14,774 nt of DNA from a virus. Its lineage: Duplodnaviria > Heunggongvirae > Uroviricota > Caudoviricetes. Below the pieces are notes generated by a model that was given only the letters and a program-made list of their open reading frames with translations, ran no database searches and was not told where the DNA came from. Below are positions 2,616-4,739 of this stretch, piece by piece. The stretch is from IMG/VR virus record IMGVR_UViG_2698536395_000026. One strand, given 5' to 3'. Within the stretch, counting starts at the first letter, position 1. Each line of letters opens with the position of its first letter. The position numbers and the translations under genes were made by a program.

Positions 2616-4739
2616 TTAAAAGTTTCCCTCTGATAAGAAAGAATAGGTTCCTGGCCCACCTGGAATATTGCATGTCCATGCCTTTGGTTGTCCTGAAGCA
2701 GGTGCGCTATTGATAACACGCTCACCTATATCCCAGAAACCGGATGTAGGTACTGACGAAAGATAAAATGTTGTTTTTTCAACTTGCAACGCGTTTGATG
2801 GCATTCCATATGCACATAGAGAAGGTGAGTTTATGAGTACATTTCCTGAACCATAATTTCTTATACCAACATTTATAGCTGTATCAGTTTCGTATATATA
2901 CACACCACAACTAACATAGCTCCATTTCCCATTACCAGCTAAAGGTGCTGTAGAGTCTGTTTGTCCTGCACCATTAATTATAAACATAAGTTTTGACGCT
3001 GATCCCTGGTCATTGACCCACGCACCAAACCATACAAATTTCCCTTTTAGTTCTGGTGATTTGTTGAGGTCTATCGTTCGTCCCCAAACTCTATCTCCTG
3101 TCGTAACTAAGAATGAATAATTACCAGCATAGATGTTTTGAGTTTTTATCAATGTTCCTGTAGTTCCAGATGCCGCAGTCCAGAGCAACATATTTCGATC
3201 AAGATAGTTAGCAGTTAACTCTCTGTTCGCAATATCTATTAAATGCGCAGTGTCAGGGTTTTGTGTCGCCGGGTCATAACTACCAACGTATCCGATGGAG
3301 TTCACTGTGTTGTTGGCAAGATATAGCCTGTCAGTAACTTTGGACGAAAGATTATTGTGGTACATTGCTAATAAATTATTCACTTTCGATGCGTCTAATA
3401 ACTGATTATTTTCAATCGTCAGGTTTTTCGCATAGTTCGTGAAAATAAATCCGTCTTGGTTAGGTAGCGCGCTGGCGTAGCCAATCGCGGTCTGCTGATT
3501 CCCGCGAATAGATACGGTATCATTAATTTTTGAAAGGTCAGGAATTAATGTAAAATTGTTCGCGATAAGGTGGATATCCGCACGTACTGTAATAGACTCA
3601 GGTACACTATACGGGTAACCAATCTCACCGTTGCGTTCCCAATAGTTAGCATCAAGGTTAAGGCCTTTAACCCCGTAAGCCAAAAGTCCGTAGAACTTAT
3701 TTTGCTCTATATTGTTGCCATTAACTCTGACGCTCATACCGCCCTCAGCGTAAGCTGGCGTAAGTAAAACTCCACCGGCTCCGTTACCATAGATACGGCT
3801 GTTGATTATATTAATATTATTGCAGTAACCACCAACATTAATACCGTTACCGGCGTTTTGAAACAACCGGCACCCAATGATGTCAATGGAGTAACCGTTA
3901 ACTAATATTGCGTTGTTATTAGTATTAACCACGTCAATATTTTCTATTTTAATGTGGTTGGCTTCAGTAAGACTGATGCCGTTAGCTGCGTAGCCATTTC
4001 CGTCAAGACCAAAGTCCCTGAACTCGCAGAACGTAATTACCCCATCTTGTTGCGTGATTATCGGTGCCGCTGTACCCGTAGAGAAAATTCTGGACTGATA
4101 TGCGCCAGCACCTCGTATCATGGTGACAGTATTCTTAATCGTAATACCAGGGTCAACAATGAACGCCCCCTCTGGTATAACAATCTCAGTTGGCAACGTA
4201 GCATCATCAATAGCCTTCTGAAATGCAGCTTTGTTCTGAGCACCGGTGTTTCCCTCAGCAAACCCGTAGTCTGTAAGCGTCCTCAGGTCGATAGTTAGCT
4301 TTTTTGAGAGAATGGTCGATGTGCTATCGACAAACTGTGGGTTATGCATGACTAGAGAGTCGCCAAGTGAGTGATCTTCGCTCAGGAGATTGCCCTTAAA
4401 CTGATCTGGATCATACTTTAGCACATTCGGAAAATAGAACTGCTGCGCACCGTATGCATCATAAACAGCCATAGAATGGCCTTGCACAGTTACGAACTTG
4501 GCAATCTGTCCGTTATATACAGGGTAACCAGCAGCGTTAATGATGATTGGTTGCGAAACAGGAACGTGAGAACCGTCTTCGTTTTCCACATAAACCTGAA
4601 TCTGGTTTTCTGGATTTACCGGGTCAGTGTCAATTTTACCGATATAAATTTTTCCATTGGCTACGGCTTTAAAAGAGCGAGACATAGTGAAGAGTTGCGA
4701 AGGCATGCTGACCACAACATTTGCGGTGATATCTGACAT
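2616..4739 (-). CDS. Tailspike protein (P22 gp9-type head-binding domain fused to a distinct beta-helix receptor-binding/O-antigen depolymerase domain)
   Basis: 707 aa from the ATG at 4739. N-terminus [11 protein letters not shown]...[36 protein letters not shown] closely matches the P22 tailspike head-binding domain as I recall it. The remainder is rich in G/N/I repeats typical of right-handed beta-helix depolymerases and does not resemble the P22 endorhamnosidase. GGAG lies 7 nt upstream of the 4739 ATG. The longer ORF start at 4787 adds 16 unconserved residues and is rejected. Confidence 0.9.

Follow-up and report, generated by a model that had tools for sequence, protein, structure and literature searches.

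The analysed window, a stretch of 14,774 nt of phage DNA, carries on its minus strand a tailspike gene at positions 2616-4739, which encodes 707 amino acids followed by a stop codon. The assignment is based on the translation of the open reading frame and on 100% nucleotide identity to the corresponding genes of Escherichia coli RM10386 and 11368; in the comparison with the RM10386 gene, 2124 of 2124 nucleotides are identical. The protein is 100% identical to WP_001280420.1, which is encoded by I3U_RS19900 in E. coli O26 RM10386 and by ECO26_RS17395 in E. coli O26:H11 11368. Translation starts at an ATG codon at positions 4739-4737 on the minus strand, and the ends of the coding sequence are identical in the RefSeq annotations of RM10386 and 11368. 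A GGAG ribosome-binding site can be read off the sequence at positions 4747-4750 of the same strand, 7 nt 5' of the ATG at 4739. A mechanically called open reading frame of 723 residues starting at 4787 was rejected, because the conserved start MSDITANV, the GGAG motif and RefSeq all point to a start at 4739.

Positions 1-14554 of the window match, with 100% identity, the P22-like prophage that adjoins tRNA-Arg and yfdC in the genome of E. coli O26:H11 11368. The integrase IntS is encoded at 1-1158 on the plus strand. Directly downstream of the tailspike gene and co-oriented with it lies an acyltransferase gene (1403-2545, minus strand, 380 aa), which matches the Pfam family Acyl_transf_3 with an E-value of 9e-29 and the O-acetyltransferase family phrog_3333 with an E-value of 3e-103. 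On the other side of the tailspike gene, the plus strand encodes an Arc/Mnt-like repressor (4828-5127), which is a 99-aa open reading frame that RefSeq calls as 88 aa, and after it a protein of unknown function (161-173 aa, phrog_6067, within 4828-5683). Beyond this protein, Pfam, RefSeq and PHROG identified the ejection proteins, the tail needle, gp10, gp4 and the coat protein. In 11368 and RM10386 the tailspike gene is located where the late operon ends, past the ejection-protein genes and the Arc/Mnt region and near the integrase end, and its neighbours in RM10386 (the acyltransferase gene, IntS, tRNA-Arg and the Arc-family gene) are the same as those in the window. The stretch 4828-5683 between the ejection-protein and tailspike genes is presumably in the position of the P22 immI region. 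No antirepressor gene is present in the 4828-5683 region of the window, whereas phage N7 has one. Promoter and terminator scans around the tailspike gene, which bear on its co-transcription with the acyltransferase gene, yielded counts no higher than those in shuffled sequence.

The identity to 11368 ends at position 14554, and the end of an IS3-family element follows at 14555-14745 (TGAGGTAGCCTGAGTTTAACGGACAC...), with the ATG of the IS3-family orfA at 14619 (MSRKTKRYSKEFKAEAVRTV...) and a Pfam match to HTH_Tnp_1 (E-value 9e-11). Compared with the RM10386 copy of the prophage, the IS3-family insertion in the scaffolding-protein gene belongs to the window, while the tailspike gene itself shows no difference. 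Because the element interrupts the scaffolding-protein gene, this prophage copy is probably defective. The last 29 nt of the window (14746-14774, CTGTAGCTTATACACATCTGACGCTGCCG) agree at 27 of 29 positions with the Illumina Nextera adapter sequence, CTGTCTCTTATACACATCTGACGCTGCCG. The window therefore has the appearance of a contig from short reads, terminated by an IS repeat and an untrimmed adapter. An IS3-family transposase insertion was also observed elsewhere, in E. coli strain 7_14_47A (NZ_CP074839.1, 3891916-3895352), where it interrupts an otherwise identical tailspike gene.

The head-binding domain that forms the virion anchor comprises residues 1-113 (4401-4739, minus strand) and matches the full profile of Pfam PF09008 with an E-value of 2e-67. 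Within these residues, 87 of 113 positions are identical to P22 gp9 (77%) and 103 of 113 to Sf6 gp14 (91%), in agreement with the P22 capsid-binding pattern that the earlier note had recognised in the first ~110 residues. In the Protein Data Bank, the head-binding domains of Sf6 and P22 are matched with E-values of 1e-45 to 8e-68. The matching regions of Sf6 (PDB ID: 7sg7) and P22 (PDB IDs: 8tvr, 2xc1 and 1lkt) end at approximately residue 115, with the Sf6 match continuing weakly to residue 256. At the DNA level, a megablast search of 50,697 phage records found HK620, Sf6, CUS-3, epsilon34, IME10 and others to be similar (83-93%) only from gene nt 1 to nt 339-351. An anchor of ~115 N-terminal residues is common to all P22-like tailspikes. 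The length of 707 residues also differs, as had been pointed out, from the chain lengths of the P22 and Sf6 tailspikes in the Protein Data Bank (667 and 623 residues). This conserved domain plugs the spike into the tail hub.

The remainder of the protein had been suspected to be a different parallel beta-helix. A Pfam search placed Beta_helix (PF13229) at residues 221-326 with an E-value of 1e-8, which like that of the PF09008 match greatly exceeds chance expectation, and an AlphaFold2 (AF2) monomer model of residues 116-707 (model residue 1 corresponding to residue 116) was obtained from a 22-sequence alignment with a mean pLDDT of 80 and a pTM of 0.75. The model predicts a short helical neck and a cap, followed by a long right-handed beta-helix, a beta-sandwich and 50 C-terminal residues of low confidence. 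The right-handed parallel beta-helix body spans approximately residues 152-505 (3225-4286, minus strand) with pLDDT values mostly between 85 and 97. The C-terminal beta-sandwich comprises approximately residues 520-645 (2805-3182, minus strand), with strands at model residues 406-528 and pLDDT values of ~76-91. The conserved C-terminal tail, residues 657-707 (2619-2771, minus strand), ends in ...SEGNF and has a pLDDT below 50; this low confidence in the monomer model suggests that folding of the tail may require the trimer. The tail motif shows ~49% identity to the C-terminal ends of two phage proteins that are unrelated elsewhere, one from Bacillus phage C30-1 and the other a pectate lyase superfamily protein from an uncultured Caudoviricetes, which suggests that residues 657-707 are a widely shared C-terminal module.

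The predicted right-handed beta-helix has no sequence match to the bodies of the P22, Sf6 and HK620 tailspikes and in this respect bears out the suspicion. A search of the Protein Data Bank with the whole protein sequence gave no match past the head-binding domain and the cap. In a direct comparison with Sf6 gp14, the phmmer alignment is weak after residue 115 and ends at residue 256, and DNA similarity is confined to gene nt 19-341. A tblastn search of the 50,697 phage records revealed a single real relative of the receptor part, phage N7, with 58.6% amino acid identity.

The tailspike gene is, as had been noticed, AT-richer than the other structural genes, with a GC content of 0.423 versus 0.488 for the virion genes at 5698-14339. 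A step in GC content or codon usage at the junction of anchor and receptor parts was looked for and not found, with a GC content of 0.426 in the head-binding domain and 0.423 in the rest of the gene. A compositional break at the domain junction is thus absent in windowed GC, and the sole marked dip is a minimum at residues 561-660, inside the beta-sandwich region (GC 0.373, GC3 0.21). The low GC content runs on into the downstream acyltransferase gene (GC 0.344, GC3 0.28). Because the anchor and receptor parts are equal in GC, composition is no marker of the domain junction.

Direct DNA comparisons, made by sliding identity and a three-way alignment, delimit the parts of the gene. From gene nt ~90 to nt 512, corresponding to ~420 nt of anchor and neck, the identity to phage N7 is 100%; it drops to 55-60% within ~30 nt and reaches ~84% again only in the last 140 nt. 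The neck and the start of the receptor domain (residues 114-171; 4228-4400, minus strand) accordingly share 100% DNA identity with N7 up to gene nt 512. The tailspike gene of a Uetakevirus prophage shows ~50% identity as far as nt 458, whereas nt 459-2090 are 98.0% identical (blastn). This receptor tract (2650-4281, minus strand) comprises 1632 nt that are 98.0% identical to the 873-aa Uetakevirus-type tailspike. The crossover zone, in which identity of the N7 type ends and that of the Uetakevirus type begins, lies at nt 459-540 (4200-4281, minus strand), encoding residues 153-180. The motif formed by these residues, the beta-helix cap, is conserved throughout the receptor-domain family.

A further junction is present at the 3' end (2616-2655, minus strand), where the last 13 codons, from nt 2085, differ from both the N7 and the Uetakevirus copies. 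The latter two agree with each other at their 3' ends and for ~45 nt beyond. The peptide encoded by the last 13 codons hardly differs from that of N7 and the Uetakevirus copy, although the codons do, and the intergenic DNA at 2546-2615 is unrelated. Since the 3' sequence differs from both copies, a recombination junction lies within the last 13 codons and leads into the AT-rich acyltransferase module. The gene is thus a mosaic of at least three parts: an N7-type anchor and neck, a body shared with Uetakevirus and a distinct 3' end. The latest exchange lies, as judged from these alignments, inside the receptor domain, ~40-65 residues past the canonical anchor boundary; we infer both the timing and the direction of the exchanges. 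The receptor-domain swap proposed in the earlier note therefore holds as a domain-wise mosaic, but its latest crossover maps to residues 153-180 instead of ~110-120. Uniform similarity to one known tailspike, which the note had named as the finding that would speak against a swap, was seen only with the same prophage gene in O26 genomes and so does not speak against a mosaic.

A database search with residues 116-707 recovered one receptor domain on several different N-termini. The forms with a P22 head-binding N-terminus have 707 aa and occur as 100%, 97% and 86% variants. A form of 873 aa with a PF18668 N-terminus shows 93-95% protein identity (P0004-P0039), and its gene resides in a prophage that also encodes GtrA, two holins and a GH19 endolysin. 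Forms of 719-724 aa were also found, one of them from Citrobacter sedlakii at 79%, as well as a form with a T7-fibre N-terminus (PF03906), forms of ~970 aa and metagenomic proteins at 35-39% identity.

Of 5426 complete E. coli genomes, 105 carry the full-length tailspike gene with at least 99% identity, and among the matches listed all carriers with a serotype in their name are O26 or O26:H11. A search with the receptor body alone (gene nt 600-2080) gave 140 places in exactly the same 105 genomes. As every carrier has a copy of at least 99% identity, the extra places are most simply explained by a co-resident Uetakevirus copy of 98% identity. Draft assemblies contained many partial tailspikes (P0047-P0067 and P0070), which are 100% identical and truncated at ~480-595 aa. 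Such truncated copies would be expected from assemblies that stop within the 1.6-kb receptor tract because another prophage holds a further copy of it.

The specificity of the receptor domain has been addressed in the literature. In one study (PMC10408124, Virol J 2023), RM10386_Prophage_RBP is the Lederbergvirus representative of an O26-specific subtype of receptor-binding proteins (RBPs); it was flagged as horizontally transferred, and its structure was predicted, with AF2 quaternary models reported. The same study paired it with the RBP of a Uetakevirus O26 prophage (E2865), lists 11368 among the carriers and serotyped 11368, RM10386 and 97-3250. Members of a subtype had to share 30% identity or more with the representative across 60% coverage or more, and the tailspike of the window, whose gene shows 100% identity to that of the representative in RM10386, falls within the O26-specific subtype. 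Experimental data come from a chimera termed RBP-CBA120-9, in which residues 120-707 of the RM10386 tailspike were fused to residues 1-168 of CBA120 TSP3 (PMC12737597, Viruses 2025). This construct switched the luciferase signal of the reporter phage from O77 to O26, off-target serogroups gave no signal, and no plaques were formed on O26. The supplementary alignment of that study corresponds to the tailspike sequence save for two small differences that are apparent text-extraction errors. Its Table 2 gives WP_038987731.1 and a figure legend I3U_RS19900, for which RefSeq has WP_001280420.1; the 707-aa length and the sequence match. An O26 receptor domain from an RM10386 prophage has also been placed on an R2 tailocin, where its effect was weak and the reduction in CFU non-significant (PMC11762384). 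The suggestion that the host specificity would differ from that of Sf6 is upheld, in that O26 specificity has been published for the identical protein and residues 120-707 give an O26-specific reporter signal.

This leads to the question whether the domain pattern and the O26 association could have arisen in other ways. The pattern might reflect unequal divergence of one ancestral tailspike with a slowly evolving anchor and a fast receptor part, and N7 is indeed homologous over its whole length with 65% amino acid identity, so that the history of the family is partly vertical. The drop in identity to N7 from 100% to 55-60% within ~30 nt, the rise in identity to the Uetakevirus gene from ~50% to 98% in the same zone and the presence of the same body on the unrelated anchors PF09008, PF18668 and PF03906 and others make this explanation extremely improbable; such abrupt changes in identity imply recombination and not gradual divergence. 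The receptor domain might, on the other hand, target another glycan such as colanic acid, enterobacterial common antigen (ECA) or capsule, with the link to O26 due to clonal hitch-hiking in the O26:H11 lineage. Most of the 105 carriers may belong to a single clonal lineage, which makes the co-occurrence weak evidence, and a PHROG match annotated as colanic-acid-degrading tail spike points in the same direction, although it covers only residues 1-255. However, the grafted residues 120-707 moved the signal of CBA120 from O77 to O26 with off-target serogroups silent, O26 genomes contain the same body in another prophage type that is unrelated to the first, and the protein is published as an O26 subtype (PMC10408124). 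A different glycan target is hence very unlikely. With high probability, the tailspike is the RBP with which a P22-like (Lederbergvirus) prophage of E. coli O26:H11 recognises the O26 O-antigen, the recognising part being residues ~116-707, comprising neck, beta-helix, beta-sandwich and tail.

Whether the spike also cleaves its receptor bears on a further alternative, namely that it is a binding-only adhesin for the O26 O-antigen. The beta-helix tailspikes of P22, Sf6 and HK620 are endoglycosidases, and by analogy we infer the same activity for the tailspike of the window. A homotrimer would then most likely bind and hydrolyse O26 O-antigen chains and the virion would in this way reach the outer membrane, as with other beta-helix tailspikes. 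The absence of plaques of the CBA120 chimera on O26 and the non-significant CFU reduction by the R2 tailocin count against efficient processing of the O-antigen. Lyase chemistry is unlikely because the O26 repeat unit, whose structure was reportedly described by Manca et al. in 1996, is not known to contain uronic acid. Four acidic residues, D286, E345, E368 and D388, do not vary among 22 members of the family, the most distant of which have 35% identity. E345 (3705-3707), E368 (3636-3638) and D388 (3576-3578), all within the segment 3576-3707 of the minus strand, are proposed as candidate catalytic acids from these invariant columns, and the spacing of 23 residues between E345 and E368 is compatible with a position on adjacent rungs. 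For HK620, the catalytic mutants D339 and E372 are named in the titles of PDB entries. An attempted transfer of HK620 D339 and E372 by hhalign with the family profile reached a probability of 20% and aligned only the anchor and the cap. No enzymatic assay of the tailspike protein was found in the literature searched. A spike that binds without cleaving is nevertheless improbable, as the four acidic residues are invariant in homologs on several anchors and the characterised Lederbergvirus beta-helix tailspikes cleave.

The downstream acyltransferase is likely an O-antigen O-acetyltransferase moron. A literature search for a prophage gene encoding an O26 O-antigen O-acetyltransferase gave no papers. 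It is conceivable, if somewhat doubtful, that the body was exchanged very recently between two unrelated prophages that reside together in O26:H11 chromosomes, a Lederbergvirus and a Uetakevirus, via the cap motif at residues 153-180, and that the 3' junction connects the spike to an acyltransferase that blunts its action on lysogens. If this holds true, modification of the O26 antigen by the acyltransferase could account for the poor performance of engineered O26 constructs despite their adsorption. The transfer across genera is already published, so that the new elements of this scheme would be limited to the mapped breakpoints and the link to the acyltransferase.

O26 is the leading non-O157 serogroup of Shiga-toxin-producing E. 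coli, and the receptor domain is already in use for O26-specific reporter phages and tailocins. Since the tailspike gene has been published as O26-specific, the finding as such is right but ordinary; the analysis adds the breakpoint map at the nucleotide level, the candidate catalytic acids and the statistics on co-residence. The map, with a natural splice at residues 153-180 and a junction in the last 13 codons, and the invariant acids E345, E368 and D388 could guide an improved design of chimeras and an initial enzymology study. Both leave the known biology unchanged.

Among the known systems, the 873-aa Uetakevirus tailspike of the E2865_Prophage_RBP type has a body like that of the tailspike of the window, with 98% DNA identity over 1632 nt, and is found in genomes that also carry the gene of the window; it too has been assigned to an O26 subtype in the literature. 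Its anchor, however, is a PF18668 domain of ~270 residues instead of a P22 head-binding domain, its neck shows only ~50-60% DNA identity in the region of tailspike residues 116-152, and its last 13 codons and downstream genes differ, with GtrA, holins and a GH19 endolysin in place of the acyltransferase. Phage N7 (MH717096; AYR02211.1, 709 aa) is a Lederbergvirus with the same domain order and a receptor domain of the same family, but its beta-helix and beta-sandwich are only ~55% identical at the amino acid level and no acyltransferase gene lies downstream; by this divergence its specificity may differ. The Sf6 tailspike is an endorhamnosidase acting on the Shigella flexneri Y O-antigen. Sf6 gp14 (PDB ID: 7sg7, 623 aa) belongs to a virion of the same, P22-like type and shares the head-binding domain with 91% identity and a weak similarity in the cap up to approximately residue 256, the comparison being a PDB match without genomic context. 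HK620 gp9 (710 aa) and P22 gp9 (667 aa) have no sequence match to the receptor domain of the tailspike, and their substrates differ from its own.
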